A DNA stretch of 64,000 nt from an uncultured Bacteroidales bacterium (GCA_963843635.1 CAWJLF010000001.1:10352-74351), one strand, 5' to 3'; counted from the first letter of the stretch, positions 12,018 through 53,772 are shown. Made by a program: numbers and translations. Notes: a model not told the origin generated them from the sequence alone.

Positions 12018-12089
12018 CTTGTTTTCTCTCCCTTATAAAAGCAAGCTTTCAATGGTCGTAAAAACAAAAACCGGACACTGATGCAGGAG

Positions 12090-12501
12090 AAATTATGGGA
12101 ACCGGATTACTTACAGTGATCCATATTTGGGGCGTCTTACAACCAGAAAACCGGACTCTGCTTCGCAGAAACAAATTATGGGAACCGGATTACCTTAAGT
12201 GATCCGTATTTGGGGCGCCTTACAACCAGAAAACCGGACTCTGCTTCGCAGAAACAAATTATAGGAACCGGATTACCTTCAGTGATCCGTATTTGGGGCG
12301 CCTTACAACCAGAAAACCGGACTCTGCTTCGCAGAAACAAATTATAGGAACCGGATTACCTTAAGTGATCCGTATTTGGGGCGCCTTACAACCAGAAAAC
12401 CGGACTCTGCTTCGCAGAAACAAATTATGGGAACCGGATTACCTTCAGTGATCCGTATTTGGGGCGCCTTACAACCAGAAAACCGGACTCTGCTTCGCAG
12501 A
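12090..12501. repeat. 83-bp tandem repeat x5 downstream of tRNA-Val, bracketed by a 60-bp direct repeat (12019-12079 / 12511-12570)
   Basis: Unit starts AAATTAT(G/A)GGAACCGG at 12090, 12173, 12256, 12339 and 12422; no unique spacers. Confidence 0.97.
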
Positions 12502-12590
12502 TTCCGGTTTTTGTTTTTCTCCCTTATGAAAGCAAGCTTTCAACGGTCGTAAAAACAAAAACCGGACACTTGTGTCCGGTTTTCTGGTTG

Positions 12591-12665
12591 TGGGGGTTGA
12601 CGGATTCGAACCGCCGACCCTCTGCTTGTAAGGCAGATGCTCTGAACCAGCTGAGCTAAACCCCC
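12591..12665 (-). tRNA. trnV: tRNA-Val (TAC), CCA not encoded
   Basis: GGGGGTTTAGCTCAGCTGGTTCAGAGCATCTGCCTTACAAGCAGAGGGTCGGCGGTTCGAATCCGTCAACCCCCA folds as a cloverleaf. Confidence 0.97.
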
Positions 12666-12677
12666 TAAAAGAGAGTG

Positions 12678-12685
12678 CAAATATA
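12678..12685 (-). promoter_or_regulatory. Bacteroidota primary-sigma -7 box for tRNA-Val
   Basis: TATATTTG matches TAnnTTTG, with a TTTG about 20 bp further upstream. Confidence 0.65.
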
Positions 12686-13121
12686 GATTACATTTTCATT
12701 TTTACAAAAAAAACCATAATAATTATCTTACCTGTATTCATTACTTTCAGAGGGATTCTGATGAGGATTTAAGCTGGATTTCTATTGGTCATAAGAAATC
12801 AGGCATTAAGTTGGTAAATGAGAGGGTTAGTCAAAATGAGGACTATTTAAATCCTGCTTCTGCAACCTTTTTACATATTTTAGGTACAAATTATTAGCTA
12901 ATATATTAAAAGCAACCTATACCGTGTTTGATAAGTCATGTTAATAAGTTGAAAAGACTTGGAAAATAAAGTGATAGAGGTGATTAAAAATTGTATATAT
13001 TCGCTTTTAATATAGATTGAGAGAAATAACTGCAGTTCAATAAGGAAGTTATTGGTTGTGGTTAGCTATGTATTTGAAATACTGGATATTGTAACTGAAC
13101 TGAAAACTTGAACCTGACTAT

Positions 13122-16100
13122 ATGGAACATCAATCCTCCGTTTCAGAAATTTTAAAATTTAGATTTTCACCTTTTAGGACACATGTTCTAAAAAGAACGG
13201 ATTACAAAGAACATAATATTTCATCAGGGTTGCCTCATGTTTTTTCCCTGGGGAAGTACTGGATGATTTTTTTTATTCTGCTTTCTGTTTCGCTGATCTC
13301 TTCGGGCCAGGTGGCAGGCGATTATAGGTCGTTGGCAACTGGAAACTGGAATGCCAATACGACCTGGGAGAAGTTTAACGGATCGGTATGGAACCCATGT
13401 GTCGCTGGTGATTTCCCCGGGGCTGTCGCAGGCAATCCTGTTGTTTATATAAATGGGAATAATACAGTTACAGTGGTTTCTAACGTAACTAACAGTATAG
13501 GATCTCTGGTTTTTAACAGTGGGAGCGAATCTAATATTGTACAGTTCTCAGGCACATATTCACTTGACATAACAGGAGCTATTACTATAAACCATCCATC
13601 GGGAGGTACAAATATTAACGGGATATATATCAATTCAGGAAATGTTACATGTACTTCATTGACCAGCAGTAATTCCGGAAGTAACAGCAGGGGTTGCAGT
13701 GTTGCTATATCCGACGGAACACTGACTGTTAACGGGAACATTCAGATGGGAGCCAATTCGCTACAGAATGATATCACATTTACTGGGGCAGGAATAATGA
13801 ATGTTTCAGGTGACCTGACAACAGGTCACCTGACAGGGGCATCGAACAGCATAGTCAATATAGGGGGGACATTTGTTCCTTCAATATTTACGATTGGTAC
13901 CTCTACTGTCAATTATAACGGCGCCGACCAGAATATTGCGGCATATACTTATTTTAACCTTACTTGTTCAGGTAGTGGTACCAAGACTTTGCCAAATGTT
14001 AATGTTACGACAGATGGTGATCTGAATATCACTGGTACCATCCTGGCTTTTAATTCAGTTCAACTCAGGAATCTTGTAGTTAATGGAGACATGTCTGGTA
14101 CCGGAACACTGGACATGAGTGCAGGTGGGTTGAGCCACAGACTTTACCTGAACGGCCAGAACAATTCCATTACAGGATTTACACCCGGTTTTGGTACTGT
14201 GTATTATAGCGGAGTAGTGTCGCAGCAAATATTCCCGGGGACCTATTATAACCTTATTACCCAGACAAGTGACCAGATCAGGACAATACAGGGTGATTTG
14301 ATCATAACTAATAACCTGACTATAACCCTGGGAACTTTTGATTTTGGCAGCAGTGAAAGAAGTGTGACAGTATTTGGAAATCTTTCAGGTGCTGGTACAA
14401 TAGAAATGAGTGGGGCAGGACTGGCACATACACTGACTCTGGAAGGTGCCTCAAACAATATCACTATCTTCAATACCACAAATGGATCTGGAAGTACTGT
14501 AAACTATAACAGTGCAGGAGCTCAACAGGTCTTTGCCAGTGGTAATTATCAGAATGTAAACATTGGCGGATCTGGCATTAAAACACTGAATGCAGGTAAC
14601 AGCACCATCAACGGGAATCTTGACATTAGCGGGGCCACATTTGCTTTTAACAATACATTACAGACTCTGACCCTGAATGGTAATCTCTCGGGTGACGGTA
14701 CATTGGATATGAGTTCAGGAAATAGAACTCATGATTTATATTTGGGTGGCCAGACCAATACAATTGGAACACTAACTACTGGAACTGCTGCCAGTACTAT
14801 TAATTATAGCAGGGCAGGCGATCAGACTGTATTCGGTAGTTCCGAGTATCGTAATCTGACAATTTCAGGAGGTGGAAACAAAGCTTTAGATGGTGGAGTG
14901 ACTGTTGGTAGTACTCTTACACTTAATTCAGGTGTTTTGCAACTGGGATGGAACAATCTTACCCTGACTAATGCCACTGCAGTTGCAGGTGGCCCATTCA
15001 GCGCCACAACAATGATAGAGACAGATGGTAACGGACTTTTTATTCGTTCCGGTAACCTGACCAATCAAAGTTTCAACCTCACCTATCCTGTTGGTAGCGG
15101 GGGGTATTATAATCCATTGATAATATCCAATCTTAATAATATTGCTGCAGCGGCAAGAAGCATTTCCATTAGAGCTGTTCCTTCCAATTTAAATGTACTC
15201 TCCAATAGCATAAATAAGCACTGGGATATTACTGCAACGAATATTACGACCCAGGCATCCACAATCCTTTCATTTCAATTTGATGAAGGGGAAGTCGTAG
15301 GGCAATCCACATTGTTTCAGCCTTATACCAATGCTTCCGGAAGCTGGGCACTGGCAACAGGCCCATCTACCCCCGGCACAAATCCTTCTACCTCAACAGG
15401 TAGTCCAAATATTTCCGGACTATGGACTGTTGGATCACCGGGAACATTTTATTCTTATCAGACAGGGTATTGGGATCAGGCAAGTACCTGGACTACGGAT
15501 CCAGGAGGTACTACCGGACCTGGAACTGCTGTTCCGGGATCGAATGATAAAGTAGTAATATTGTCGGGACGTACAGTATCCCTTGAAAATGACGATTTTA
15601 GCCAGAACCTTGACATAACAATAACTAACGGTGGTATCCTTGACCTTACAACCTGGAGCTTTGGAAGTCCGCTGGCAGCACTCCATGGATCAGGAACTCT
15701 TAAACTGACTTCATCAAATTTCCCTGCATCAGTTGTAAATACTTTTGTGACCACAGATGGTGGTACTACTGAGTATAATTATAATGGGCCCTTATCCTCC
15801 TTACAATCTGTATATTATAACCTTACAATCAAAACAGCTTTCGGTACTACCGTTCAGGTAAATGACCTTACCATTAACGGGAATCTTAATGTTGCAGAAG
15901 GGACATTCCAGATAAATGACGGAACATCCAGAAGATTGAAACTTATTGTAAATGGAGATGTTACTGTAGATAATTCAGGTTCAATCGCAATAGGTACCGG
16001 AACCACAAGAACAAGTGCTGGGCCATTGCCTTCGATTACAGGTAGTACAGGCTTATTTCTTAATTACTATGAACTTAATTCTCACAGGATCCAAATATTT

Positions 16101-19100
16101 GGAAATTTTGTAAATAATGGCATAGTAAGGTTCTCGAACCTTGCAAACCCGGTTTATAATTCATTTCCATCTAGTGGTTTTGCTACTGTATATTTTCAGG
16201 GACTGAGTGACAAGACTATTACATGTAATGGTCAGACTGATTTTTATAACCTTGTTGTTGACAAGGGTACTGATCAGACCTTCAAATTAACTGTTAATTC
16301 CTCAACGTATAATAATTTCAGACTTTTCGGAGCAAACACATCTGATGGAAGTATCACTTTGCCAGCAACCCCTGCTGGGAATCCTAACCTGAAGAAAGCA
16401 TTATGGATTAAGAATGGAACACTTGTCCTGCAGGGTCTAATAGCTATACCATCACTATCAGAAGGAAATACTTCAGGAACTTATCAAAGTGATTTCTTCA
16501 TACCTGCAAATGGAGCTTTGGAACTTGACGGCGGAGGTGTTATTGTGCTGTCAACAGCTGACGATTATACAGAAGTAAATGCTGCATACGGATTATCTGG
16601 AGGTTCAAATGCTACATATGGAATTAATGCTTCCGGAGGGTACAGTGGATTATCTGTACTTGGTAAATTACAGATCAATAGTGGTTATCTCTCAACAAGG
16701 GAGTCTGCTGGTATTCTTTACTGGAGTTATGCACCAGGACAGTTTATCATGAATGGTGGCAAAGTTGATACAAAACAACTTCATAACCCCGAAGGAGGGT
16801 CCACAGGGTTAATCTCCTTTGTTCAGTCAGGGGGAAATATGATCATTAGAGGTCGTTTCAACAACACAATAAATTATAGTGTCCCTGCCGATCTTTCAAA
16901 CCCTGTTATGAATACAGCTCGAGTCAATGATGGTATTGATCCATCATCAGGCATTGGTGCTTTCAGTATTAATAATAATGCAGCGAATGGGTTTACAATG
17001 TCGGGCGGTACAATTTCAGTATATGATGTATGTAATACTTCGGGTACTCCACTTGCATTTCTTGTGAACTGTCCAAATGAAAATATCAATGTTACCGGTG
17101 GAACACTTCAGATTATCCCTACCACAGGTACAGGACCCGCTGATGCCAATTATTATATTAACAGTACTGCTCCTGTTAATAACTTATCTATTAACAGGGT
17201 TAGTGGGACATCGCTGGTACGACTCCTTGCAAATCCACTGGTTGTACTTAATAACCTGACTCTTACGTCAGGTGACCTGTCAGCAAATAACCTCGATGTG
17301 ACCATCGGGGGTAATTTTTCGTTAGCCGCGGGGACATCTTATAATACAGGTAGCAATACTACTATTTTGAATGGATCTGCCGATCAGTCTTTTACCATTA
17401 ACACGGCCTCTGCATTATCACTTAATAATTTTTCGATTGACAAACCTGTCGGAGTAGCTGTTAACATTGCCGGGACACAGGCAACCATGAATGTAACAGG
17501 TGATTTCAGCATGCTTTTAGCTACACTTAATGATAATGGCAAAACAATTAGTATTTCCGGCAATATATTCAACTCGGGTATCCATGCCGGTACCGGTAAA
17601 ATTATCCTTAACGGTGTCAATACTCAGACGATAAACGGTAATGGTACCTTTGGCAATGTCGATATTAATAATACAAATGCTACAGCCGCACCAGTCTCAC
17701 TGCTGGCAAATATGACAGTAAATGGAATTCTTTCATTTTTACAGAACAAGATCTTTAATATCAATACATATAACCTTAAGCTAAATGCCACAGCTGCAAT
17801 AGTTAATGGTGGCCCCCTTCGCTATGTCCGATCTGCAGGAAATGCAGGAGACGGGGGACTTACCAAAGTTTTTTCGTCATCAACTACATTCATTTTCCCT
17901 GTAGGTGTCGTAAATTATACCCCCGCATCAATCGGTTTAAGTTCAGCTCCGACAGCCTATGGATCAATAACAGTCATACCCGTTAATTTCGCTCATCCTA
18001 ATGTTACTGTTCCTGGAAGGAGCCTTTCATATTTTTGGCGGGTCAAATCATCAGGATTTATCCTGGGTGGAGCCACTGTCACCCAAGGATATACTTATGC
18101 TCAGGCAAATGTAGTAACAGGTGTCGGAATAAGTGAAGCTGAATATGTAGCAGCAAGATTTGATGCATCGACAAGTACCTGGACTAATGGCACTTCTGAT
18201 GATGTTGATGATACAAATAATATAATAGGAGAACCGGGAGCCGGTACTTTCCTTGAGAATGTAGCTTTTATAGATGGTGATTATACTGCTGGTGACAATA
18301 ATCCAACCAGTCCGTTCGGTACTCCCCAAATCTATTATAGTAGAATTAACGGAGCGGCATCAGGCGGCGGATTATGGAGCAGCATTAATACATGGTCTAC
18401 AGATCCGGTATTACAACATACAGGTGCCCCTGCAGGTACTGTTCCGGGAGCAGGTGATATCGTAATTATCGGTGGACGTGACTCTGTATACCTTGCTACC
18501 AATAACACGGTGGCTAACACAGATGTAAGGAATTGTGCCAGCCTGAAGATTGAAAAGGGATCAGCCCTTGATATCGGGTATAACCCGAATTCAAATTTTG
18601 GCATGGTACTCAGCAGTACAGGTGGAAACGGTAATTTTAGGTTAACATGTGATAGAGGACCTGATTATTATACTACTATAAGAACCTTTCAATTTCCGTC
18701 GGGAGATTTTTCTGATTTTAATGTAAATTTAGGCACAACCGAATTATATACAACAAATCCAGTTGCGGGTACTACTTTCTACCTTCCTAATGGGGTTTTA
18801 TCATTTGGGAACCTAATTATCTCCCCTTTAGGAGGTTCAAATATTATTTTTCCTAATAACGATCTGAGAATTTATGGTAACTTAGTTACAAGAGGCCAGA
18901 ATGCGGATTCATGGTTCTGTCCTACCTGGAACGTTAATTATCCAACTGTACCATCTGCAAGAATTGCCAAAACAATCACAATTGATGGAAACCTTGACAT
19001 CCAGGGAGGATCACTTATATGGTACGGTAACGGGGGATTGGCTCAAAACTTTGTGGTTCATGGAGATGTGAAGGTTGCAACGTTATCTGCATTGTATGTC

Positions 19101-23666: not shown

Positions 23667-26600
23667 ATGGCTGTGTTAGTGCATACCTACCCTATAAGTA
23701 TTACTATAAGTAGCAGACCGGTGCCTACCTTTACAGCTGAACCTGGTGCAACTGCCTGTTCCGGTACAGATGTAACCTATACGACTCAGGGAGGTCAATC
23801 CAGCTATGTATGGACATTCCCGGGAGTAGCCGGTACTGATTACAGCATTACCTCAGGTGGTACATCCTCGGATAATAGTGTAACGCTAAAATGGTTAACG
23901 GCAGGTGTTAAGACAGTTTCAGTTAATTATACCAATGCAAGCGGTTGTAATGCAGTTGCGGATGTTTCATCAATACCGACAACTGTCACTCTTCTACCAG
24001 TTCCATCTTTTACTTCACAGCCCGGAGCTACTGCTTGTGCTTTCTCAGATGTTACATATTCCACGCAGGCAGGTCAGACTAATTATATATGGACCTTCAC
24101 CGGAATATCGGGTACCGATTATAGTATAACAACCGGTGGCACAGCCTCTGATAACAGTGTGACGCTGCAATGGCTTACTGCAGGAGTGAAAATTGTCTCA
24201 GTTAATTATACAAATGCGGGTGGTTGTACGGCTTCCAGTGCTTCATCATCAACTCCGACAACTGTAAATCTCGCAGCTATCCCAACATTTACAGCAGAAC
24301 CGGGTGCAACAGCCTGTTCTTCAACAGATGTCACATATACAACACAACCAGGACAAACCAATTATACCTGGACATTCACAGGTGTTGCAGGAATTGACTA
24401 TAATATTACCTCAGGAGGAACCCCCACTGATAACAGTGCTACACTGCAATGGCTTACCGCAGGAATAAAAACAGTTACAATTAATTACACCGACGCAGGT
24501 GGGTGTACTACTTCAAGCCCTGCCTCCTCTGCACCAACCACTGTAAGTCTTCTTCCGGTTCCATCATTTACTGCGCAACCTGGAGCGACTGCCTGTGCTA
24601 CTGCTGATGTTATATATACAACCCAGGCAGGTCAGACAAATTATATATGGACCTTTACAGGAATATGCAGGAACTGATTATAGTATTACATCCGGAGGTA
24701 CGATCACAGATAACAGTGTTACTTTGAAGTGGCTGAATGCAGGTGTCAAAAGTGTAACCATTAATTATACAAATGCGGGTGGATGTACCGCTTTAAGTGC
24801 CACATCTTCAATACCGACCACAGTTTCACTTCTGCCGGTTCCAACCTTTACAGCTGAACCGGGAGCCACGGCCTGTGCATCAACAGATTTGACCTATTCG
24901 ACCCAGGCTGGCCAGAGCAATTATATATGGACTTTTACTGGTGTGGCCGGAACAGACTACACTATTACCACAGGTGGAACAGCTACCGATAATAGTGTTA
25001 CACTTAAATGGCTGACTACAGGTATTAAAACGGTAACAATAAATTATACAAGCGCAGGTGGATGCACGGGTGCATCAGCAGCTTCATCAATCCCAACAGT
25101 GATAAGTCTGGCACCTACTATAGCGAATGCCGGGGCAGATCAAAACGGTGCTGCCACATGTGGACTCACAATTGTTACTTTGTCTGCTAATACCCCTGTT
25201 GATGGAACCGGGTTATGGAGCATCGTTAGCGGAACAGGAGGTACTGTTACAGCTCCTGGAAGCCCTTCCAGCACCTTTACTGGTGTTGCAGGAACTACCT
25301 ATGTATTACGATGGACAATTACTAATCCTCCATGTACTCCTTCCACTGATGATGTTACAATAACATTTAATCAACCACCTTCACCGGCAAATGCCGGACT
25401 CGACCAGACAGATGCTGCAATGTGTGGATTGACAAGCACAACCCTTACAGCAAGTACCCCTACGATTGGAACAGGTACCTGGAGTATAATAGGCGGGGCA
25501 GGTGGTACTGTTGCCAGTCCAAATAGTCCAACAAGTGCATTCACCGGAGTTGCCGGGACAACCTATGTACTTAGATGGACTATTACGAATCCTCCCTGTA
25601 CTCCAACTGTCGATGATGTTAACATTACATTCCATCAGAATCCGACACCCGCTAATGCCGGGCCTGATCAGATTGATGCTTCGACCTGTGGACTTACTCT
25701 GGTGACACTGGCTGGTAATAATCCAGCAATTGGCACCGGAAACTGGAGTATAATAAGCGGATCAGGAGGAACTTTTGCTAATGCTTCTTTATTCAATACT
25801 ACATTTAATGGCACTCCGGGAACAACGTATGTGCTCCGCTGGACTATAAATAATCCTCCATGTGTAGCCTCATTTGACGATGTTACCGTAAAATTCAATC
25901 AGGAACCGACTGTAGCAAATGCCGGATCAGATCAGATAGGCTCAGCAACTTGCGGACTCACATCTGTAACCCTTACTGCTAATAATCCTGTTATAGGTAC
26001 GGGTACATGGAGCATTGTAAGTGGTGCAGGCGGTTCATTCGATAATGCTGCACTGAGTAATGCAACCTTTAGCGGAACAGCAGGAACAACATATGTTTTA
26101 CGATGGACAATAGATAACCCTCCATGTACCCCATCAACAGATGATGTTACCATTACCTTCAATCAGGATCCTACCACGGCTGATGCAGGACCAGATCAGA
26201 CAGATGCCTTGACCTGTGGCCTTACAATGGTTACTTTGGCAGGCAATAATCCGGTTGTCGGGACAGGATCATGGAGTATAGTAAGTGGAAGCGGCGGCTC
26301 TTTTGCCAATCCATCACTTAATAATACAACTTTCACCGGTACAGCCGGAACAGCGTATGTTCTGCGCTGGACAATAAGCAACCCTCCATGCTTACCTTCA
26401 TCCGACGATATTACTGTCACTTTTAACCAGAGTCCGACTACTGCTGATGCGGGCCCTGATCAGACAGGAGCTTCTACATGCGGACTGACCACAGTTACTC
26501 TTGCAGCCAACAATCCTGTTGTGGGAACCGGATCGTGGAGTATCGTAAGTGGTGCAGGTGGATCATTTGGGAATACCTCGTTGAATAATTCAACATTTAC

Positions 26601-29600
26601 AGGTACAGCCGGAGTTACATATGTTCTTCGCTGGACTATCACAAATGCTCCATGCGCATCCTCCACAGATGATGTTACAATAACATTCAACCAGGAACCG
26701 ACAATTGCAGATGCTGGTGCTGATCAGACCGATGTCGCAACCTGTGGACTTACAACAGTTACTCTTGCAGGTAATAGTCCTGTTATAGGCCAGGGACATG
26801 GAGTATTATAAGTGGGAGTAGGAGGTTCATTCACAAATGCATCACTGAACAATACAACATTTTCAGGTACTGCAGGAACAACTTATGACCTTCGCTGGAC
26901 AATAAGCAGTCCTCCCTGTGTGCCTTCAACAGACGATGTAACCATTACATTTAACCAGGCACCCACAACAGCTAATGCAGGACCTGATCAGAATGGTGCC
27001 GCAACATGTGGATTGACAACAGTTAGCCTGGCAGCTAATAATCCTGTTAGTGGTACAGGTACCTGGAGCATTGTAAGTGGTAGCGGAGGCTCATTTGCGG
27101 ATGCCATCACTTAACAATACAACATTTACAGGTACAGCAGGGACTACATCATACATCTGCGCTGGACCATAAGTAACCCGCCATGTGCCGATTCATTTGA
27201 CGATGTCACATATGTACTAAGTGTCAGCCCGACATGGCCGATGCAGGCCCGGATCAGACCGATGCAGCTACATGCGGCTTAACACTGTTACCCTGGCAGC
27301 AAATACGCCAACTGTAGGATCTGGTACCTGGAGTATAATGGGAGGTACGGGAGGTACAATCACTGATCCTTCTGATCCTGTTAGTACCTTCAGTGGAGAC
27401 CCGGGTAAGACTTATAGCCTGAGATGGACAATTAGCAATCCACCATGTACACCTACATTCGATGATGTAAATATTACTTTTAATGAGAATCCGACTACGG
27501 CGGATGCTGGGTCCTGATCAAACAGGATTATCAATGTGTGGAATTACAGTGACAACCCTTCAGGGTAATGCTCCGGTTGATAGGAACAGGCACCTGGACC
27601 ATAATAAGTGGTATTGGAGGAAATATTACCGCAGCAAACAGCCCGACAAGCACCTTCACAGGTACAGCCGGTGTTGCTTACTTATTGAGATGGACAATTA
27701 CACAATCCTCCCTGCACTGATTCATTTGATGAAGTCAATATAGTATTTAATCTTGTTCCAACTCCAACATTTACTGTTGAACCAGGGGCTTCAACATGTA
27801 CCGGCATTGATGTAACATATTCAACACAGGCTGGTCAATCGGATTATTTATGGACTTTTACCGGTATATCAGGAACAGATTATACTATTGTATCTGGAGG
27901 TACATTGACAGATAATACTGCAGTGGTAAGATGGCTGACTCCCGGAAATAAAACTGTAACAATAAATTACTCTAATACAGCCGGTTGTAGTGCCTTAGTC
28001 ACAACTTCTTCATCACGACAATGTTATCGCAACACTTCCGGTCAGCGTAACAATAACAGCCGATGCCAATCCTGTCTGCGACGGGACCACGGTTAACTTC
28101 ACGGCAACACCTGTTAACGGAGGCCTTACACCGTCATACCAGTGGTACAACGGGGCAGTTCCGGTAGGTATTGACAGTCCGACATATTCCTATGCACCGG
28201 CAGATGGTGATATCATCACGGTTGTTCTCACTTCGAGTGAGACATGTCAGAGCGGCGGTCCTGCAACATCCAATGCAATACTGATGAATGTCAACCCGGT
28301 ACTTCCGGTCAGCGTAACAATAACAGCCGATGCCAATCCTGTCTGCGACGGGACCACGGTTAACTTCACGGCAACACCTGTTAACGGAGGCCTTACACCG
28401 TCATACCAGTGGTACAACGGGGCAGTTCCGGTAGGGATTGACAGTCCGACATATTCCTATGCCCCGGCAGACGGTGATATCATCACGGTTGTTCTCACTT
28501 CGAGTGAGACATGTCAGAGCGGCGGTCCGGCAACATCCAATGCAATATTGATGAATGTCAGCCCGGTACTTCCGGTCAGCGTAACAATAACAGCCGATGC
28601 CAATCCTGTCTGTGACGGGACCATGGTTAACTTCACGGCAACGCCTGTTAACGGAGGCCTTACACCGTCATACCAGTGGTACAACGGGGCAGTTCCGGTA
28701 GGTATTGACAGTCCGACATATTCCTATGCACCGGCAGACGGTGATATCATCACGGTTGTTCTCACTTCGAGTGAGACATGTCAGAGCGGCGGTCCGGCAA
28801 CATCTAATGCAATATTGATGAATGTCAGCCCGGTACTTCCGGTCAGCGTAACAATAACAGCCGATGCCAATCCTGTCTGTGACGGGACCATGGTTAACTT
28901 CACGGCAACGCCTGTTAACGGAGGCCTTACACCGTCATACCAGTGGTACAACGGGGCAGTTCCGGTAGGTATTGACAGTCCGGCATATTCCTATGTACCG
29001 GCAGACGGTGATATCATCACGGTTGTACTCACTTCGAGTGAGACATGTCAGAGCGGCGGTCCGGCAACATCTAATGCAATACTGATGAATGTTAACCCGG
29101 TACTTCCAGTCAGCGTAACAATAACAGCCGATGCCAATCCTGTCTGTGACGGGACCACGGTTAACTTCACGGCAACGCCTGTTAACGGAGGCCTTACACC
29201 GTCATACCAGTGGTACAACGGGGCAGTTCCGGTAGGTATTGACAGTCCGACATATTCCTATGCACCGGCAGATGGTGATATCATCACGGTTGTTCTCACT
29301 TCGAGTGAGACATGTCAGAGCGGCGGTCCGGCAACATCTAATGCAATATTGATGAATGTCAGCCCGGTACTTCCGGTCAGCGTAACAATAACAGCCGATG
29401 CCAATCCTGTCTGTGACGGGACCATGGTTAACTTCACGGCAACGCCTGTTAACGGAGGCCTTACACCGTCATACCAGTGGTACAACGGGGCAGTTCCGGT
29501 AGGTATTGACAGTCCGACATATTCCTATGCACCGGCAGACGGTGATATCATCACGGTTGTTCTCACTTCGAGTGAGACATGTCAGAGCGGCGGTCCTGCA

Positions 29601-32067
29601 ACATCCAATGCAATACTGATGAATGTCAACCCGGTACTTCCAGTCAGTGTAACAATAACAGCCGATGCCAATCCTGTCTGCGACGGGACCACGGTTAACT
29701 TCACGGCAACGCCTGTTAACGGAGGCCTTACACCGTCATACCAGTGGTACAACGGGGCAGTTCCGGTAGGTATTGACAGTCCGACATATTCCTATGCACC
29801 GGCAGACGGTGATATAATAACAGTTGTTCTCACTTCGAGTGAGACATGTCAGAGCGGCGGTCCTGCAACATCCAATGCAATACTGATGAGTGTTAATCCA
29901 CTTCCGACAGTTGTTATTACGGACCCGGCACCTGTATGTATGCCTGCTACTGTAGATCTTACAGATGCAGCAATAACATTTGGAAGTACAGCAGGACTGG
30001 ATTATACATACTGGACAGATGCATCTGCTAGTGTGTCATATACCTCACCGACGGCTGCCGTTGCAGGCACCTATTATATAAAGGGAACAAATCCTGTTAC
30101 AGGTTGCTTTGATATTCAACCGGTTACTGTGGTAATAAATGCCCCCCCGATAGTTTTGATTACTGATCCTGCACCAGTTTGTTCACCTTCTACAGCAGAT
30201 CTGACTGATCCGTCAGTTACAGCAGGAAGTACTGCTGGAATTGACCTGACTTACTGGACCGACGCAGCAGCAACGGTACCGTATGCCACGCCTGGTACAG
30301 CTACTACAGGAACCTATTACATTAAAGGGACTGACCTTTTAACAGGATGCTATGATATTGAAACAGTAAATGTGGTTGTCAATGATTCGCCTGTGGTTAA
30401 CGGGGCAGTAACTAATGTCATGTGTAACGGATCATCAACGGGAGCAATCGATATTACTGTGACAGGTGGATCATCTCCCTATTTATTCGCATGGACAGGC
30501 ACAGGGGTTATCCCTGACTCTGAAGATCAGACAAATCTTGCAGCAGGTCCGTATTCAGTTGTTGTTACTGATGCAAACGGATGTGCTGCTTCAGAAAATA
30601 TGAATTTAAGTGAACCGGCAACTGCACTGGATGGTACAATTACCTTGCAGGATAATGTAACTATTAGCGGTGGTAACGATGGAAGTGTAACGGTTGAGGG
30701 TTCAGGGGGAACGCCGCCTTATATGTATCGGTTTGAAAGTGACCCTTACCAGGCATCAGGTACTTTTGCATCACTTACTGCCGGAAATTACACTGTTACA
30801 GTTCAGGATGCCAATCTTTGTACATTTGATGTTCCTGTGATAATAACCCAGCCATTGGCAAGCCTCTCCGGAAGTGTTGTTTCACTGACAAACGTTACTT
30901 GTTTCGGGACATCCACAGGAACTGTCACAATTGAAGGAAACGGAGGTTTGGCGCCTTATGAATACCAGCTTGGCTCGGGACCGTTTCAGTCATCCGGCAC
31001 ATTTGGGTCACTTGCTGCTGCAGACTATACTGTTACGATACAGGATGTTAATTTAAACACATTTGAAGTCATTTTCACTATTACTGAGCCCGCAACAGCA
31101 GTCAGCGGAATTATATTGTCGAAGACAGATGTTATTTGTTTTGGCAATAATACAGGAAGCGTGACAGTTGAAGGTTCGGGAGGGACACCTCCATACCAGT
31201 ATAAACTGGGCTCTGGAGCATACCAGGTATCAGGGGAATTCAGTTCTCTTGTTGCAGGAGACTATATAGTTACTGTGCAGGATGCTAATCTTTGTACCTT
31301 TGATATCCCGGTTACAATTTCACAACCATTGTCAGCCTTAAGTGGTACGTTGTTACACAGACAAATGTGTCATGTTCCGGTTTATCAGATGCATCATTTG
31401 CGATCAATGCTTCAGGCGGATACTCTCCTTACTAGTACAGTCTGGATGGAGGGGCATTCCAGTCGTCCGGTGCTTTCAGTAATCTGGCGCAGGAACATAT
31501 ACTGTTACTATAAGTGATGCCTCATCGTGTACTGTGGATATTGATGTAATTATAACTGAGCCGGAGGTACTATCCATATCCTTTGAGAAGACTGATGCTT
31601 CCTGTCCGGATGTGGCATGATGGTTCAATAACACTTACTGTGACAGGAGGTACACAGCCATATAAATATTTATGGTCTGATGGTATTACAACCCCGACAC
31701 TTGCTGATATCACTGATGGTACATACAGTGCCGTGATAACAGATCAGAACAACTGTGCTGCTCCTATATGTGGAAGTAGGTGTAAATGGCTCAGAAAAAT
31801 GCCTTGAAATACCGGAAATAATAACACCTAACAATGATGGATATAATGATGAGTGGAGGATAAAGAATATTGATCTTTTCCCGAATGCTGAAGTACTGGT
31901 TTACACCAGATGGGGTAAACTTGTATTTAAGTCCAGAAATCTTTCAGCAGATCCATGGAAAGGTACATTTAAAGGAAAGCTCCTTCCTACGGATTCATAT
32001 CATTATATTTTACATCTGAATGATGGATCAGAACCACAGATCCGGTGTAATAAGTATTATCAGGTAA
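23667..32067 (+). CDS. Frameshifted continuation of the giant protein: PKD/Ig-like arrays, SprB-type repeats and a T9SS type B (gliding-motility-associated) C-terminal domain; whole gene about 6300 aa
   Basis: ORF fragments 23667, 24595, 26812, 27221, 28284, 31583 and 31755 join end to end. C-terminus [16 protein letters not shown]...YTRWGKLVF...DSYHYIL...SGVISIIR* (TAA at 32065-32067). Confidence 0.82.
25120..27755 (+). repeat. About 264-bp intragenic repeat x10 (A[N/D]AGxDQ...TCG...GTGxWSI...LRWTI...PPC...DDV), diverged at synonymous sites
   Basis: Unit starts near 25120, 25385, 25650, 25915, 26178, 26442, 26706, 26970, 27237 and 27500. Confidence 0.85.
28034..29890 (+). repeat. 267-bp (89 aa) near-identical intragenic tandem repeat x7
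   Basis: ACTTCC(G/A)GTCAG(C/T)GTAACAATAACAGCCGATGCC at 28034, 28301, 28568, 28835, 29102, 29369 and 29636. Confidence 0.97.
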
Positions 32068-37884: not shown

Positions 37885-37886
37885 AA

Positions 37887-42457: not shown

Positions 42458-42499
42458 ATTATAATAATTTTTAATATTTCTTTTTTGTTACTAAGGATA

Positions 42500-43689: not shown

Positions 43690-43699
43690 CTAAAAAGAA

Positions 43700-44395: not shown

Positions 44396-44702
44396 TTGTT
44401 CTCTATTTATCAGATATCAATCATAAGCTCTTTTCCCTCTTTATCTGATACCACCACTTTTATTCTGTGCTCCTCCTTTTTATCCTTTCACTGAGCAAGA
44501 TACAATAGTAATGTGCTCAAAATAAAAGAGATAACTATAATATGCCTGGCTGTTTGTAACCAGGTTTTTATAATTGATGGCAATAGCGGCTGGTCTCTAA
44601 AATATATTAACTTGGATATTTGATGGTTAACACCCGGTTAATAAGAGTTAAGGAAAAGTTAAATAGTGCATTAATAAGTATTTAATAATTTATTTTTACG
44701 AA

Positions 44703-46344: not shown

Positions 46345-46345
46345 A

Positions 46346-47040: not shown

Positions 47041-47043
47041 TCT

Positions 47044-47534: not shown

Positions 47535-47756
47535 AATACTCCTGCTCTCTGTGAGTTTTACAAGGTAGTAAATATTGTTCATAATTAATGCAGTGATTTT
47601 TATCATAATATAGATGGCTTAACTATCACCTTAATCTGAAAAAAGCATGAAATGAAATATATTGTTTCCCATTATTTATTGATTAATACTGTAGCATATG
47701 ATCAATCTTAGGATAGCTGAGTGACATTTTTTTTATTTTTGTCAGAAAAACATGTA

Positions 47757-48781
47757 ATGAAAAAGTGCATAATTTTTCTCTTCTTTTTATACTGATCATG
47801 GTTTATTTTCTTGCAGAGCGACAAGACGGTTCCTCGGTACACAACGGTCCAGTAAATCGGAAATGCTGTAACATACATTAGCAGGTACAAAGATCTGGCA
47901 ATAAGTGAAATGAAGCGAACAGGTATACCGGCCAGCATCACCCTTGCCCAGGGGATGATCGAATCGGATTATGGAAGAAGTAGCCTTGCCAGGGATGCCA
48001 ATAATCTATTTCGGGATAAAATGTCATGATGACTGGAACGGACCAGACAATAAGGCAGCATGATGACAGGAGAAATGAATGCTTCAGAAAATACAGGGAA
48101 CCGGAGGAGTCATTTTATGACCATTCAGAATTTATCAGGACAGGGTCGAGATACAGTTTCCTGTTTAACCTGAAGTCCACGATTACAAGGCGTGGGCACA
48201 TGGATTGAAAAAAGCCGGATATGCAACAAACCCTGATTATGCCAATATGATCATCAGGAAAATTGAAGAATATAACCTTATGATTTATGACCGGGGATAT
48301 ACTGCCTATGATATATCTTCACAGAAAAGACAGCGGCATTAGTTCTCCAGTCCCGACAGGCAAGACCGGGAATGGAAGAATTGCTCAACTATCAGTCCGG
48401 CAAAACTACTGTCATGGAAAGGGTACCACGCCTTTTGGAGAAGAACAGGATACAATATATCATTGTCAGAGATGGGGATACAAAGTAAAAAGATTGAGAA
48501 TGAATTTCAGCTGTTGAAGTGGGAACTCGCGAAATATAATGATTTGCCGTCCGATTTTCAGCTTGTTCCCGGACAGATATTATATCTTCAGCCAAAAAAG
48601 GGCAAAAGCCGAAGCCGGTGAAGATTATTATACCACAGTTGAAGGAGACACGATGTACCTTATATCACAGAAATATGGGATAAAGCTTAAGAATCTCTAT
48701 GAAATGAACAGGATGGAGCCAGGTAGTGAACCCGGACCCGGTATCAGGATATGGCTAAGAACTGTTAAGCCGGTCAATTGA
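47757..48781 (+). CDS. Glucosaminidase (GH73-like) with C-terminal LysM domains, frameshifted
   Basis: YKDLAISEMKRTGIPASITLAQGMIES, NNLFG, FRKY..PEESFYDHSEF and KAGYATNP fragments; LysM YTTVEGDTMYLISQKYGI. Confidence 0.87.
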
Positions 48782-49742
48782 ATATTATATTGTAGCTGTC
48801 TATACTGAAGCCCCTGAGGAATTCCAACAGTGTTCATCTTCTTCTTGCCCTTCAATCTGAAGACTTGCAATACTCATAAAACCGTTCTCTTACATGCAAT
48901 CTTCAGATAAGTGTTTCCCATCACTGATAATATGACCAGGTTCATAATCATGACATTCAATCTCGGGAAAACTCTCAAAAATCTTAAACATAAATACTTG
49001 AGAGCCATTGGTGAAATATGATCTCGCACAGGGATAAGGGGAAGCCCTCTGATAAAATTATGAAGTATGGGAGCTTCATTATTCCAGTTGATAATACAAT
49101 AATCAGGATAGATCTTTAGGAGCTGATCTGATTGATTCTCCGGGATTTAAAAGATTTGACTGAGGAATTGGTTTAATTTGTTTTCAGCAATTTCTGAAAG
49201 CGTCCTGATCACAAGCCTGGCACCATGTTTCATGAGTCTGTCATGAAGATCTCCTGCATTTTCAAAGGGAAAATGTGCACTTCTTCCCGCAAGAGAATAT
49301 TTCCGGTATCAATCTTATCATCAATAAAGAAAGTTGTGACCCCTGTTACTGTTTCACCGTTGATTATAGCATGATTGATAGGTGCTGCCCCACGGTATTG
49401 CGGCAACAATGAAGCATGAAGGTTAATGGTTCCTATTGAGGGGATCCTCCATACCATTTCAGGAAGCATTCTGAAGGCAACTACAACGAATATGTCCGGT
49501 TTGAGTTTTTTCAAGAGCTGAAATAAAACCCGGATCTCTAAGGTTAATGGTTGTATAATGGGAAGATAACTGGATTCAGCAAATTCTTTCACTGCTGATT
49601 TAGTTAATTTTCTTCCTCTGCCAGCAGGTTTGTCAGGAACTGTGACAACTGCCACGACGTTAAACCCGTTCATAAGCAGTGAACCAAGTGTTGCTACAGC
49701 AAACTCAGGAGTCCCCATAAATACTACCCTGAGATTCTTCAT
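48774..49742 (-). CDS. fmt: Methionyl-tRNA formyltransferase (frameshifted after about 170 aa)
   Basis: VFMGTPEFA, PDKPAGRG and NLHASLLPQYRGAAPIN motifs; downstream APKIYP and GKKKM...EFLRGF fragments. Confidence 0.92.
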
Positions 49743-49801
49743 AAGTGGACTATTACTTCACAATTCAATAATACCAAATTAGTCAATCCTTTCCAATGTG
49801 T

Positions 49802-51016
49802 TTATAACATGACAAGGTTATGTCCCATCTTGTTTGCCTTGGTCTCAAGGTAGAACTTATTATGGGGATTGGATTCTATAACTAAAGGGATTGTTTCCAC
49901 TATTTTAATGCCATAGCCTTCCAGCCCGGCTCTTTTAACAGGATTATTGGAAATAAGACGTACTTTACCCAGTCCCAGTTCCCTCATAATGCTCGCACCC
50001 ACACCATAATCGCTCTCATCTTCACTAAAGCCAAGTTCAAGGTTTGCTTCCACAGTATCCAATCCTTCATCCTGCAACCGGTAGGCCTTTATCTTATTCA
50101 GTAGCCCTATGCCCCTGCCTTCCTGGCTGAGGTAAATGACTACCCCTTTCCCTTCTGCCTCTACCATCTCCATTGCTCTCTGCAGCTGAGGTCCGCAGTC
50201 GCATCTTAATGATCCGAATATATCGCCGGTAAAGCAGGAGGAGTGCAGCCTTACCATTATCGGTTCTTCCTTGGTCCAGGTACCTTTTACCAGTGCGGCA
50301 TGTTCAATCCCGTTACTTATCTGTCGGAAAGGAATAAATTCAAAGTCACCCCTTGTGGTGGGAAGGCTTACTCTTTCTCCTTTCTCAATAATTGAATCAC
50401 GTTCGAGAGTATATGTTATAAGATCCTTTATAGCAATAATTTTGATCCCGAATTTTTCACTAAGTTTTATGAGGTCATTTAGCCGGGCCATGGAACCGTC
50501 GTCATTCATTATTTCAACCAGGGCACCACCTGGTCTTAGTCCTGCCATTCTTGTCAGGTCGACCACAGCTTCAGTATGGCCGGCTCTTCTCAGGACACCC
50601 TTTGCCTTAGCTTTTAAAGGGAAAATATGGCCGGGTCGTGCGAGGTCGGTTGGTTTGGTTACAGGGTCCACCAGAGCTTTAATTGTAAGAGCACGGTCCT
50701 TGGCTGATACCCCTGTTGTAGTGTCTTCATTTAAAAAATCCACGGATACTGTAAACTGAGTGGCATGAAGCGAGGTATTGATGCCTACCATGAGATCAAG
50801 TTCCAGCTCATCACATCTTTCTTCCGGAAGGGCAGTACAGATCAGACCCCTGCCAAATTTGGCCATAAAGTTTACAATTTCAGGGGTTACCAGTTCAGCT
50901 GAACATATGAAATCTCCTTCATTCTCGCGATCCTCATCATCGACAACAATTAATAGTTTTCCCTTTTTTATATCCTCAATTGCTTCTTCAATTGTATTCA
51001 GTTTGAAATCATCCAT
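49802..51016 (-). CDS. ribBA: Bifunctional DHBP synthase / GTP cyclohydrolase II
   Basis: [43 protein letters not shown] and QEGRGIGL motifs. Confidence 0.97.
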
Positions 51017-51029
51017 TTGTAAGTATTAT

Positions 51030-52526
51030 TTATTCAGATCCAGATTTACTTTGTTCCCCGTTTATAAATATTCTGTATCCCAGATCCTTGATTTTTTTAA
51101 AGAACAGTAAATATGTATCAATGTTCATTATTACAGAGTCGGTAGTGGCCTTGTAAGTCAGAAAAACCCCGATAGGCAAAAGGATATACGATGCTGCCCA
51201 CATTCCTGCAAAAGTGCTTACAATATCTTCTTCAACAAGCTTCTGCGCCGAGATGGATATCACGTAATATATAACGAAGAAAAAGATGGATATTACAGCC
51301 GGGGTTCCCAGCCCTCCTTTCCTTATTATGGCACCGAGTGGTGCCCCTATAAAGAAAAAGACCAGGCAGGCAAACGACATCGTGAGCTTCTTATACCATT
51401 CCACCTCATATTTCTTAATATTCTTTACATCCCAGTGCAGTGATTCGCTCTTTTGTGTAAGGCTGCTGGTTGCGTCCTTGATGCTTTCAATGGCATTGGC
51501 CAGAACGGATCTCTTTTCTATCAGAGTTAGAGAGTCAAACACTACGTCAGTATTGAATTTGGTGAACCGGTAATGGCTGCTGTCACTGAAATCCCTTATC
51601 AGTTTACTTGGAACATAGTATTCCTTTCGGAATATTTTGTTGTTCAGAAAATCGTTAAACTGGTCATCGATTTTAGTCACATATTTTTTATTAAGAGAAT
51701 CGATAAAAAATGTCAGCTCAGAAATATTCTTCATAGCTGCAGTGGATTTAAAGAGTCCTTCTTCACTTCTTTCAAGATCAAATCCACTGAGAGGAATAAC
51801 AATGCTCTGCTCCTCGAAAAAATCTTTCCTTGACGGATATTTTCTGGCAGTTGGCAACATGTTCTTCTCAGCCATCTCATTATAGGAATATCCATTATAC
51901 AGGGTCATTATCAATCCTGTCTCATCAGGACTCAGTTTCATGTATCCCGAATCAGCCAGTATAACATGAGTGTCTCCTTTTCTGTCGCGATGATCATAAA
52001 TGATAAGATTCTCCAGCAGGTTAGTCTCAGGATTTTTCTTAGATATCTTGATACTGAAATCGGGTACTCCGTTATAGAAAGTACCTGCCTGAATATTTAT
52101 GTCAGGCTTCTTCTTACGTATATCCCAGAGGAGAGTCCTGGCTTTATCAGTTGCATAAGGCAGAACATTATTCGAAAAGAAGAATGATACAACTGCGATC
52201 AGTACAAGCACAAGTATCAAGGGACGCATTATTCTCTGGAGTGGTATTCCAGAGGCTTTCAGGGCAGTCAGTTCACTGAACTCACCCATATTACCGAATG
52301 TCATCAGCGAGGCTAACAGTATAGCCAGTGGCAGTGCAAGGGGGACAAATGTCAGTGAAAAATTGTAGATCAGCTCCGCAAGCACCATGAAATTAAGTCC
52401 TTTTCCTGCCAGTTCGTCAACATACATCCACAGGAACTGGAGGATCAGAATGATAAGCACAATGAAAAATGTGAGTACCAGCGGACCTACAAATGATTTT
52501 AATACGAACTTATCAACTCTCTTCAC
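51030..52526 (-). CDS. LptF/LptG family LPS export permease
   Basis: LQFLWMYVDELAGKGL, ELTALKASGI and FFFIGAPLGAIIRKGG motifs; probable GTG start at 52526. Confidence 0.9.
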   Translation of the reverse strand: MKRVDKFVLKSFVGPLVLTFFIVLIILILQFLWMYVDELAGKGLNFMVLAELIYNFSLTFVPLALPLAILLASLMTFGNMGEFSELTALKASGIPLQRIMRPLILVLVLIAVVSFFFSNNVLPYATDKARTLLWDIRKKKPDINIQAGTFYNGVPDFSIKISKKNPETNLLENLIIYDHRDRKGDTHVILADSGYMKLSPDETGLIMTLYNGYSYNEMAEKNMLPTARKYPSRKDFFEEQSIVIPLSGFDLERSEEGLFKSTAAMKNISELTFFIDSLNKKYVTKIDDQFNDFLNNKIFRKEYYVPSKLIRDFSDSSHYRFTKFNTDVVFDSLTLIEKRSVLANAIESIKDATSSLTQKSESLHWDVKNIKKYEVEWYKKLTMSFACLVFFFIGAPLGAIIRKGGLGTPAVISIFFFVIYYVISISAQKLVEEDIVSTFAGMWAASYILLPIGVFLTYKATTDSVIMNIDTYLLFFKKIKDLGYRIFINGEQSKSGSE

Positions 52527-52687
52527 TGCCTGTCTTTGTTTGAGGTGCAAAATTACTTGATTTTTATCAAATATCAGCTTTGATAGAATTCATTTTTTGA
52601 CAGGTTATAAAATAAGGGCATAATGGTGCGATGGCACAAAGGCGCAGAGGTTTAATTCTATAATTGTTTTTGAAATATATCTTTGAT

Positions 52688-53062
52688 TTATATTCCTAAA
52701 ATCCTTTTCAGGTCATTGATCTGGGAATCCCAAAGATATATTGCATCATCTTTTTCGTCCTCATCAGCAAAGTCGGTTATGATAAGAGCCAGTCCTCCTG
52801 TGAGCTCTTCTACATTTATTTTGAATTCAAAATAATTGGTGTCCTCATTATCCTTCTCAATCCATTCAAACCTGACAAGTTTATTCTCTTTCAGGGCCGA
52901 AAGCCTGGCCTTTGTTTCAGTGTTGTTCCAATAAAATGAAAAAAGATCTCCGTCTACATTAACCTGCTCAGCAAACCATTCTCCAAGTCCTTCAGGAGTG
53001 CTCAGACGAGAAAAAAGCACCTTGGGAGAACAATTGAGCGGATATTCAAGTTCGAACTTCAT
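52688..53062 (-). CDS. START-like/SRPBCC domain protein
   Basis: FELEY...SP..LF..LSTPEGLGEWFA...LIITDFA...LWDSQI pattern of the Bacteroidota START-like family. Confidence 0.82.
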   Translation of the reverse strand: MKFELEYPLNCSPKVLFSRLSTPEGLGEWFAEQVNVDGDLFSFYWNNTETKARLSALKENKLVRFEWIEKDNEDTNYFEFKINVEELTGGLALIITDFADEDEKDDAIYLWDSQINDLKRILGI

Positions 53063-53261
53063 TCTTTTGTCAGGGGATTAATCAATTTTCTATACTTTTT
53101 CTGCAATATAGAAAAAATTCTTAAACTAAATTACCTTATTGTTATTTTGTGACAAACTGTTTATATTTGCACCCTCAAAAGAGAAAACAGGTTGATTCTA
53201 AAGAAGAAAAGGTTCATTCTCAAGGTAAAGCATTCACGGTTCTTTAAATAAAGTATTTATT

Positions 53262-53335
53262 GGCGAGATAGCTCAGTTGGTTAGAGCGCATGATTCATAA
53301 TCATGAGGTCGGGAGTTCAATTCTCCCTCTCGCTA
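53262..53335 (+). tRNA. trnM: tRNA-Met (CAT), elongator type, CCA not encoded
   Basis: GGCGAGATAGCTCAGTTGGTTAGAGCGCATGATTCATAATCATGAGGTCGGGAGTTCAATTCTCCCTCTCGCTA; TATATTTG -7 box at 53162-53169. Confidence 0.95.
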
Positions 53336-53371
53336 CAACAGAAAGCCTGGCACGAAGTGCCGGGCTTTTTT

Positions 53372-53772
53372 GTTTTCAAGCCTCTGAGCTTGCTCAAAGA
53401 GGCGTTAAAACAAAAAAGCCCAGGTAATCCGCCAACCGGCGGATCACAGGCTTTCTGTTGTTAAGTCCCCCCAGAGAATCGCCGCAGGCAATTCTCTGGT
53501 TTTCAAGCCTCTGAGCTTGCTCAAAGAGGCGTTAAAACAAAAAAGCCCAGGTAATCCGCCAACCGGCGGATCACAGGCTTTCTGTTGTTAAGTCCCCCCA
53601 GAGAATCGCCGCAGGCAATTCTCTGGTTTTCAAGCCTCTGAGCTTGCTCAAAGAGGCGTTAAAACAAAAAAGCCCAGGTAATCCGCCAAACGGCGGATCA
53701 CAGGCTTTCTGTTGTTAAGTCCCCCCCAGAGAATCACGGCGCGACAGCGCCGTAATTCTCCCTCTCGCCACA
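53372..53772 (+). repeat. 127-bp palindromic tandem repeat x3 after tRNA-Met, ending in a copy of the tRNA 3' end
   Basis: GTTTTCAAGCCTCTGAGCTTGCTC at 53372, 53499 and 53626. AATTCTCCCTCTCGCCACA (53754-53772) matches 53319-53337 at 18/19. Confidence 0.96.

Follow-up and report, generated by a model that had tools for sequence, protein, structure and literature searches.

Gene-less palindromic modules behind tRNA genes of Bacteroidales and their possible kinship with tRNA-targeting GIY-YIG cassettes

Transfer RNA (tRNA) genes are classic landing sites of mobile DNA, and the agents known to us at these sites are integrase-borne islands. Non-coding repeats also occur behind tRNA genes: the RtT RNA (Rfam RF00391) comprises 178-bp repeats behind tyrT-tyrV of Escherichia coli, which form tandem non-coding units with a copy of the tRNA 3' end. 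In phage T6, the GIY-YIG homing endonuclease SegB, encoded next to tRNA genes, cleaves DNA of the tRNA region and causes a 718-bp unit of tRNA and segB to be tandemly amplified; experiments show that the amplification proceeds by homologous recombination at microhomology (PMC13096335). Here we analyze a stretch of 64,000 nucleotides from an uncultured Bacteroidales bacterium (GCA_963843635.1, CAWJLF010000001.1:10352-74351; hereafter the window), in which a tRNA-Val and a tRNA-Met gene are each followed by a tandem array of strongly folded modules. We hold with about even confidence that these arrays are gene-less modules that insert and amplify at the DNA level in the 3' part of tRNA genes and that are related to tRNA-targeting GIY-YIG cassettes, an enzymatic link that we infer.

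Both tRNA genes are intact. tRNA-Val(tac) lies on the minus strand at 12590..12665 (ARAGORN/Rfam start 12590/12591; RF00005, 73.3 bits) and tRNA-Met(cat) on the plus strand at 53262..53336 (ARAGORN, end called at 53335 or 53336; RF00005, 74.8 bits). Read in tRNA sense, the two loci follow one common order: the tRNA, a terminator-like hairpin (T1), a small hairpin (H), a second terminator-like hairpin (T2), AAG with a run of C residues (C-run) and a final hairpin (T-hp), whose 3' arm is the T-loop/T-stem sequence of the locus's own tRNA. Specifically, T1 extends from the discriminator base and consists of an A-rich arm a, an inner hairpin of the form CAC-NNN-GTG and a T-rich arm b, and H carries a G(CTTG)C loop. 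The arms of T2, b' and a', are exactly complementary to b and a and enclose an inner hairpin unlike that of T1. This architecture had been described in a first-pass annotation made from the sequence alone; inspection of the sequence, Tandem Repeats Finder and the predicted folds confirm that both arrays are real and that all their hairpins are present in the order it gave.

At the Val locus (all minus strand), T1 occupies 12551..12591, with a running from the discriminator, a CAC-AA-GTG inner hairpin and the T-rich b. It is followed by H (GAAAGCTTGCTTTC, with its G(CTTG)C loop) at 12528..12541 and by T2 at 12471..12518, in which the A-rich b' and the a' exactly complementary to a flank the inner hairpin TCTGCGAAGCAGA. 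The tandem array spans 12090..12501 (83 bp x 5.0, 97% matches), each unit containing part of the T2 inner hairpin, a', AAG, the C-run, T-hp and a 15-nt linker. Its five blocks of C-run and T-hp lie at 12104-12132, 12187-12215, 12270-12298, 12353-12381 and 12436-12464 (pattern matches G000:C1:22455-22815, G000 being the window's genome), and the array closes with a partial second copy of the 3' half of T1 plus H at about 12029..12085. An element resembling a miniature inverted-repeat transposable element (MITE; GGGAGACTGTATCAAAAGATGAAATACA..CGCAAAGTTCGCTAAG) abuts the far end of this array at about 11925-12010 of the window and is also found 3' of tRNA-Arg(tct) (contig C15) and tRNA-Arg(ccg) (C17) of the same genome.

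At the Met locus (all plus strand), T1 lies at 53335..53376 (a, a CAC-GAA-GTG inner hairpin and b, TTTTTTGTTTT), H (CCTCTGAGCTTGCTCAAAGAGG) at 53381..53402 and T2 at 53407..53461, where b' and a' enclose the inner hairpin ATCCGCCAACCGGCGGAT. The C-run (53467-53472) and the first T-hp, CCAGAGAAT-C-GCCGCAGGC-A-ATTCTCTGG, together occupy 53467..53499. Here the array (53372..53735; 127 bp x 2.9, 99% matches) is built of units containing H, T2, the C-run and T-hp. The last C-run, a canonical T-hp (AGAGAATCAC-GGCGCGACAGCGCC-GTAATTCTC) and a copy of the tRNA-Met 3' end follow at 53721..53770. The last unit closes with 15 nt that repeat the tRNA tail exactly, AATTCTCCCTCTCGC (53754-53768), before a different terminator begins; the full tail copy is confined to this last unit, and the inner units hold the T-stem part only. 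Logan contigs, which are short unitigs, from two coded sequencing runs (X1 and X4, one of which may be the source sample) span the Met unit junction at 53499/53500, and the length of the C-run differs between the two runs. Because contigs of two runs bridge this junction, the arrays are not an assembly artefact, a concern that the first-pass annotation had itself raised.

Across loci, T-hp follows a single recipe: the complement of the T-stem 3' strand plus AT, a C, a small hairpin, an A, and AT plus the T-stem 3' strand itself. It is a T-arm whose loop TTCGAAT has been turned into ATC-hairpin-AAT with a conserved C.A mismatch, and its left half follows the respective tRNA (CAGGAT/ATCCTG in Pro, CGGAT/ATCCG in Cys, GGGGAT/ATCCCC in Ser and TGGAT/ATCCA in Leu). 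Folded as single-stranded DNA, the first Met module reaches -56.1 kcal/mol (z -11.0) and the first Val module -47.0 kcal/mol (z -9.6), with none of 200 shuffles as good in either case. The first module of each locus is predicted to fold into a junction closed by the trailer arm a and its inverted copy a', and in minimum-free-energy folds the junction and T-hp recur in most of 73 modules. Among 200 predicted loops, GNA triloops outnumber GNRA tetraloops by 44 to 12. The GNA triloop is a classic stable DNA mini-hairpin, and its excess hints, if weakly, at folding as DNA. Two further ideas were dropped after inspection by eye: a minihelix formed by the linker and the tail copy appears in a few Ser modules only and is not general, and a hammerhead-like reading of the GAGCGAAGCGA hairpins lacks the CUGA core.

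An alignment of 64 modules (MAFFT + RNAalifold) recovers H, with 9-20 double changes at each of five pairs, and T-hp, with 26 double changes at its outer pair. It misses the long stems because these are not column-aligned, and complementarity was therefore measured per locus, by comparing the best 12-nt window of a with the region containing a' (5 of 67 modules, for which parsing failed, were excluded). Within the same module, a and a' share at least 11 Watson-Crick matches in 51 of 62 cases, 38 of them perfect, versus 37 of 2376 cross pairs between tRNAs of different amino acids and 34 of 444 cross pairs between tRNAs of the same isoacceptor in other genomes. Orthologous tRNA-Cys modules furthermore display paired changes between species (CAAC/GTTG, CAAT/ATTG, CAGC/GCTG and CTAAAT/ATTTAG). 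The modules thus form a structure-conserved, tRNA-anchored family whose stems match within and not between loci, as initially proposed; the accompanying label of a self-templating element goes further than these data, since the complementarity within a locus could stem either from compensatory change or from palindrome correction.

How does this family compare with described systems? Like RtT, the arrays consist of tandem units behind a tRNA that include a copy of the tRNA 3' end. Unlike RtT, they contain a four-way palindromic core, a C-run and a plugged T-arm, occur behind many tRNA types and are polymorphic between species. A cmscan search of ten module loci, made along the lines of the Rfam comparison that the first-pass annotation had suggested, returned no match to RF00391 at E<=1 and gave only tRNA and weak chance matches, and the whole window matches nothing but tRNAs at the Rfam gathering threshold. 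The likeness to SegB of phages T4 and T6 lies in a GIY-YIG gene beside tRNA genes and in a tandemly amplified unit of tRNA plus nuclease that arises by recombination via tRNA-derived microhomology (PMC13096335); relatives of the window's bacterium carry 343-411-bp arrays of a GIY-YIG gene and a tRNA piece. Unlike SegB units, the window arrays are devoid of open reading frames (ORFs), the GIY-YIG proteins are about 85 aa long and encoded on chromosomes instead of phages, and hairpins plug the displaced tRNA copies.

The attC sites of integrons resemble the modules in having hairpins that are conserved in structure rather than sequence, a conserved mismatch and a variable tip, and in splitting cargo into cassettes of one orientation. 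Unlike integrons, the modules are anchored at tRNA genes instead of attI/intI and carry tRNA sequence in the junction. No integron integrase or intI-type tyrosine recombinase was found near modules in G000 or among 37 ORFs flanking modules, and the attC R''/R' core consensus (RYYYAAC / GTTRRRY) is not evident by eye. Repetitive extragenic palindromes (REPs), which pair in bacterial interspersed mosaic elements (BIMEs, or REPINs) and are associated with REP-associated tyrosine transposases (RAYTs), likewise combine paired inverted hairpins with a spacer, are non-coding and possibly depend on a small nuclease acting in trans; REPs, however, are dispersed with one sequence per family, whereas the modules sit only behind tRNAs and are locus-specific, and the RAYTs of G000 are flanked by other REP families. 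With tRNA islands and cis-mobilisable elements (CIMEs) the modules share the duplication of the tRNA tail from the T-loop on as direct repeats, the rebuilt tRNA and tandem accretion. They differ in that neither an integrase gene in the element nor a related full-length element with the same ends was found, in their unit size of 83-235 bp and in their conserved folded interior. Unlike MITEs, finally, the modules have inverted repeats (a/a') that are locus-specific, as the cross-locus counts above indicate. As such, RtT, Seg-type endonucleases, attC arrays, REP/RAYT systems and att-flanked island remnants each differ from the modules in at least one defining property. A full-text search that included 19-mer motif strings found no description of the element in the literature outside subscription journals and supplements.

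The window's arrays are part of a larger set. In the genome, which is 74% complete and yielded 35 tRNA genes, the first-pass annotation had called for a survey of the other tRNA loci; the full plan recurs at eight of the 35 genes (Val-tac, two Met, Ser-tga, Ser-gga, Pro-tgg, Gly-gcc and Cys), and partial forms are present at Asp and Ala. Exact copies of the tRNA tail of at least 12 nt occur downstream of 6 of the 35 tRNAs and upstream of none, and at tRNA-Cys a single module sits between exact 16-nt tail repeats. All true matches to the C-run and T-hp pattern in G000 lie within about 640 nt of a tRNA. The same pattern was detected in 46 of 61 genomes of the genus and in 12 of 150 other genomes of the order (sampled outside the genus, mostly one per family), with no match for the reversed control in either set. 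The exact 19-mer GGATCACCGNAGGTAATCC is present in 2 of 400 genomes of a phylum sample (reversed control 0) and at no fewer than 120 loci of species genomes from Bacteroidales, Flavobacteriales, Chitinophagales, Cytophagales and Saprospiraceae; one Ignavibacteria and one 'Sphingomicrobium' metagenome-assembled genome are also among the matches listed. Of 80 fetched 19-mer loci, 59 lie downstream of a tRNA on the same strand at a distance of at most 400 nt, usually 130-155 nt, and several of the remainder end at contig edges. Cultured carriers include Rasiella sp. SM2506, Arenibacter palladensis DSM 17539, Compostibacter hankyongensis JCM 17664 and Flavobacterium sp. XGLA_31. The module is thus taxonomically widespread yet patchy, and it is unusually abundant in the genus. 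When IMG/VR was scanned for the C-run and T-hp pattern, only two of 80 fetched loci (L032 and L080) held real modules, in both cases at a prophage-type junction with the displaced 3' part of a tRNA upstream of the module; the remaining loci look like chance matches with neither hairpin nor tRNA.

Comparison of orthologous loci reveals that the modules are polymorphic between species. At the START_2-linked tRNA-Met locus, 23 genomes of the genus comprise five with modules, one with a GIY-YIG cassette and 17 with plain terminators; among 22 informative tRNA-Val(tac) loci there are five modules, four GIY-YIG cassettes, one plugged fragment and 12 plain terminators. The terminator that lies beyond the tail copy at tRNA-Met in G000 (53781..53817 of the window, plus strand; AAGCCACTTACAC..GTGCAGGTGGTTTTT), G059 and G048 is homologous to the one found directly 3' of tRNA-Met in the module-free G050, G022, G006, G060 and G005, and thus represents a displaced ancestral terminator. 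Similarly, the tRNA-Cys locus is empty in G024 and G002 and filled in G006, where the trailer of G024 follows beyond a degenerate tail copy. The polarity of these events, insertion into an empty site, is suggested because the old terminators are retained beyond the tail copy. Perfect tandem duplications of the whole element including its tail were found at Cys in G071 (26-bp repeat x 3) and at Val in G057. As separate observations at tRNA-Met and tRNA-Cys, about ten orthologous tRNA-Met genes of the genus have the T-loop ATCATTC in place of TTCAATT, with the same ATC start as the plugged T-hp (L288, L289, L291, L292, L295, L297, L302, L305, L306 and L307). A pseudo-tRNA-Cys lies just upstream of the working gene in G000 (C6:292842-292898) and at L013, L014 and L017, with a hairpin insert in the T-loop (in G006, in the anticodon arm), and G009 and G002 carry an inverted T-hp and tail upstream of tRNA-Cys.

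Some junction copies bracket genes. In G010, a 14.6-kb metabolic cluster behind tRNA-Pro (L021, G010:C15:43000-61000), with MTHFR, MvhD/Hdr-like and glutamate-synthase-like genes, has repeats of about 50 bp, composed of C-run, T-hp and tail, on either side, and it may be a case in which metabolic genes were captured at a tRNA. Further cargo between junction copies comprises a GH38-like gene (G016) and a ParE/RelE-type pair (G059), and a scan of the cargo blocks of G010, G016 and G059 detected no recombinase.

The most fruitful lead came from the co-occurrence with GIY-YIG genes that the first-pass annotation had proposed to examine. At the Met locus of G048, the tRNA and a terminator are followed by an 85-aa GIY-YIG ORF (PF01541, 2e-16), a pseudo-tRNA-Met and the old terminator, and the pseudo-tRNA is plugged by hairpins in the anticodon arm and in the T-loop, the latter as the ATC-plug-AAT also seen in T-hp. 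Small GIY-YIG nucleases of this kind, about 85 aa long, chromosomal and consisting of the catalytic domain only, have UPF0213 proteins and the structure-specific endonuclease SLX1 as their nearest profiles. Within the genus, 49 of 61 genomes encode them, frequently in arrays with units of 343-411 bp (for example x7 in G045, x8 in G060, x8 in G076 and x6 in G003), and about 23 of 30 such loci, as read from coordinates, lie no more than 300 nt from a tRNA. Of the nine copies in G000, five are found at tRNA genes, namely at tRNA-Asp, at tRNA-Pro(ggg), as two units of 349 bp, and at tRNA-Gly(ccc), as two units of 395 bp. Every unit comprises a tRNA 3' part, a terminator, the ORF, whose stop codon falls in a D-arm copy, and a piece of plugged pseudo-tRNA. 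The pair of plugs seen in the Gly units appears again at tRNA-Ala of the same genome, there with no ORF, and G004 has ORF-less 78-bp plugged units beside a GIY-YIG gene. Modules and cassettes are alternative occupants of the same tRNA 3' flanks, and they are alike in that the tRNA is rebuilt with a new terminator, a loop-plugged tRNA piece is displaced and the unit is amplified in tandem. Across the order, a GIY-YIG nuclease was found in 10 of 12 genomes with T-hp versus 65 of 138 without (one-sided Fisher p = 0.016, a test that ignores relatedness). A second small GIY-YIG subfamily of about 100 aa, which is not tRNA-adjacent, occurs in G000 at C7:179655-180652, C15:95218-95565 and C8:567409-567705, flanked by hairpin repeats of the GTCATTGCGAGGAGC..GCGACGAAGCAA and ATCCCTCGC..GCTCGGGAT types, and forms a 686-bp tandem pair on C7.

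These observations are compatible with a model in which the module is placed between the T-loop of a tRNA gene and a displaced copy of its tail, bringing along a replacement tail and the new terminator T1. It also carries H, the inverted terminator T2 and the C-run, and ends in a T-arm with the hairpin-plugged loop, T-hp. The short tRNA-derived direct repeats, T-arm and tail, may subsequently serve as recombination points, giving rise to tandem amplification in units such as those of 83 and 127 bp, and recombination at the same repeats in relatives may have captured cargo genes between junctions. The modules would be stripped-down relatives of the SLX1/UPF0213-like GIY-YIG cassettes at the same tRNA loci. 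Small GIY-YIG nucleases acting in trans would nick or break DNA in or beside tRNA genes, and repair by recombination at the tRNA-derived repeats would insert and amplify the elements, so that the window arrays would be ORF-less products or relatives of this process. Phage T6 SegB provides a direct precedent, backed by experiment, for such nuclease-driven amplification. The place of cleavage and single-stranded DNA, rather than RNA, as the folded form are likewise presumptive. The element would then be regarded as a tRNA-targeted selfish or recombinational element. If GIY-YIG nucleases do drive the process, segmental amplification of the phage SegB type would extend to bacterial chromosomes, and a new route of gene capture would be added. 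A wider picture, which we put forward tentatively and consider somewhat unlikely, is that Bacteroidota harbor a group of tRNA-gene parasites, in which structure-specific GIY-YIG nucleases of the SLX1/UPF0213 kind home into tRNA genes, with the D- and T-arm boxes, which are universally conserved, as homology arms, rebuild the tRNA, plug the loops of the displaced copy and spawn ORF-less modules; modules folded as single-stranded DNA would thereby become integrase-free junctions at which cargo genes are captured and stacked behind tRNA genes, a tRNA-anchored analogue of the integron.

Several points weigh against a GIY-YIG-driven DNA element. The association seen across the order comes from a test blind to relatedness, and two of the 12 order genomes with T-hp (G031 and G608) have no nuclease. 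Within the genus there is no association at the level of genomes (both T-hp and GIY-YIG in 38, T-hp only in 8, GIY-YIG only in 11, neither in 4; p = 0.47), and the T-hp-rich G006 (11 matches) and G005 (7 matches) are among those with T-hp only. No GIY-YIG ORF lies inside the window arrays. Because the conserved interior of the modules (H, T2 and the C-run) is absent from the cassettes, common descent of the two is only putative; moreover, most cassette pseudo-tRNAs are plugged in the anticodon arm, with the T-arm intact. The empty sites could also arise by deletion between tail repeats. T1 and T2 resemble ordinary intrinsic terminators, and the strong covariation would fit RNA equally well.

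This last point leads to the alternative of a structured RNA or terminator, which we regard as unlikely. T1 and T2 would form a bidirectional double terminator, H, the C-run and T-hp would belong to a long 3' trailer transcript with a role in tRNA processing, in insulation or as a small RNA, and the arrays would be by-products of slippage. Indeed, both hairpins combine an A-tract, a GC hairpin and a T-tract, the discriminator is precisely where the module begins, most of the 73 modules share the junction fold, and covariation is seen in H and at the outer pair of T-hp. CUUG forms a stable tetraloop in RNA, which counts for an RNA, and RtT provides a precedent. Against this, T1 should stop most transcripts before H, and the patchy distribution, with 12 of 150 order genomes positive and 17 of 23 orthologous Met loci plain, sits poorly with an RNA function. 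The tail duplication, the insertion polymorphism and the cargo between junctions are left unexplained, GNA triloops exceed GNRA tetraloops (44 versus 12), and no Rfam family was matched at E<=1.

It seems quite unlikely that the modules are att-site scars or cis-mobilisable remnants of islands that a tyrosine or large serine recombinase inserted into the tRNA T-loop, with arrays arising by tandem accretion. Direct repeats of the tRNA tail do flank the inserts, and cargo blocks do lie between repeats. A scan of the 37 ORFs flanking modules and of the cargo blocks, however, found no recombinase in or beside the modules, in line with the original remark that the window encodes no mobilizing enzyme, and double-stranded circles could not form from units as short as 83-127 bp. 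The five matches to the tyrosine recombinase profile PF00589 in G000 are not near any module. Large serine recombinases (PF07508) occur in 15 of 61 genus genomes, none of them at a listed T-hp site, and the T-hp-rich G000, G014, G059, G006 and G010 lack them. Islands of the integrase type at L032, L080 and L282 cut at other places in the tRNA body, their junctions lack T-hp and the module stays on the downstream side; an integrase beside T-hp in G081 likewise belongs to an ordinary island that cut into the tRNA body, the module merely lying downstream. Y1 transposases (Y1_Tnp) are absent from the T-hp-positive G043, G044 and G057, and the three in G000 are RAYTs (C13:168896-169237, C6:262292-262636 and C19:230699-231046), each flanked by arrays of its own REP-like hairpins. 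We have therefore rejected tyrosine recombinases, large serine recombinases and Y1/RAYT enzymes as the module enzyme; the integrase and HUH/RAYT associations that had been suggested alongside GIY-YIG show no link to modules. In G000, REPs of the C19 type are nested in the 235-bp units of a tRNA-Met array on C17.

It is very unlikely that no dedicated enzyme is needed and that palindromic terminators behind highly transcribed tRNAs generated the inverted copies, tail copies and arrays by template switching and slippage: T2 is truly an inverted copy of T1 (a:a' and b:b' pair perfectly, a:b imperfectly), and the arrays are 97-99% identical and hence young, with a C-run length that varies between runs, but several parts that are not templated, namely the loop of H with its flanks, inner hairpins of the GAGCGAAGCGA type, the C-run and the ATC-plug-AAT motif including its C.A mismatch, are kept across tRNA types and orders, which speaks for descent or for some specific machinery.

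In one genome, as many as about a quarter of the tRNA loci are thus occupied by a strongly folded module without genes, which differs from species to species, multiplies in tandem and encloses accessory genes with no recombinase present. For genome analysis, the modules have practical consequences: assemblies break where they follow tRNA genes, island predictors can take them for att sites, and the pseudo-tRNA fragments that they yield may be misread by annotation pipelines.

Two further repeat families were noted. A second, unrelated tRNA-trailer family, AAAAAGAGTGAGAG..CTCACTCTTTTT followed by CACACTCACAC runs, lies 3' of Ile, Gln, Arg, Met, Leu and Phe genes of G000 (C6:1670, C6:305705, C8:210273, C8:220918, C8:510628, C11:6779, C11:35439 and C17:3176), and Leu-taa and Phe of this family have copies of their own tails of 14 and 12 nt at +307 and +433, respectively. 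Within the window, positions 23967-29893 contain long tandem repeats of 264-279 bp (71-97% matches) in apparently coding DNA, which probably encode a repeat-domain surface protein.

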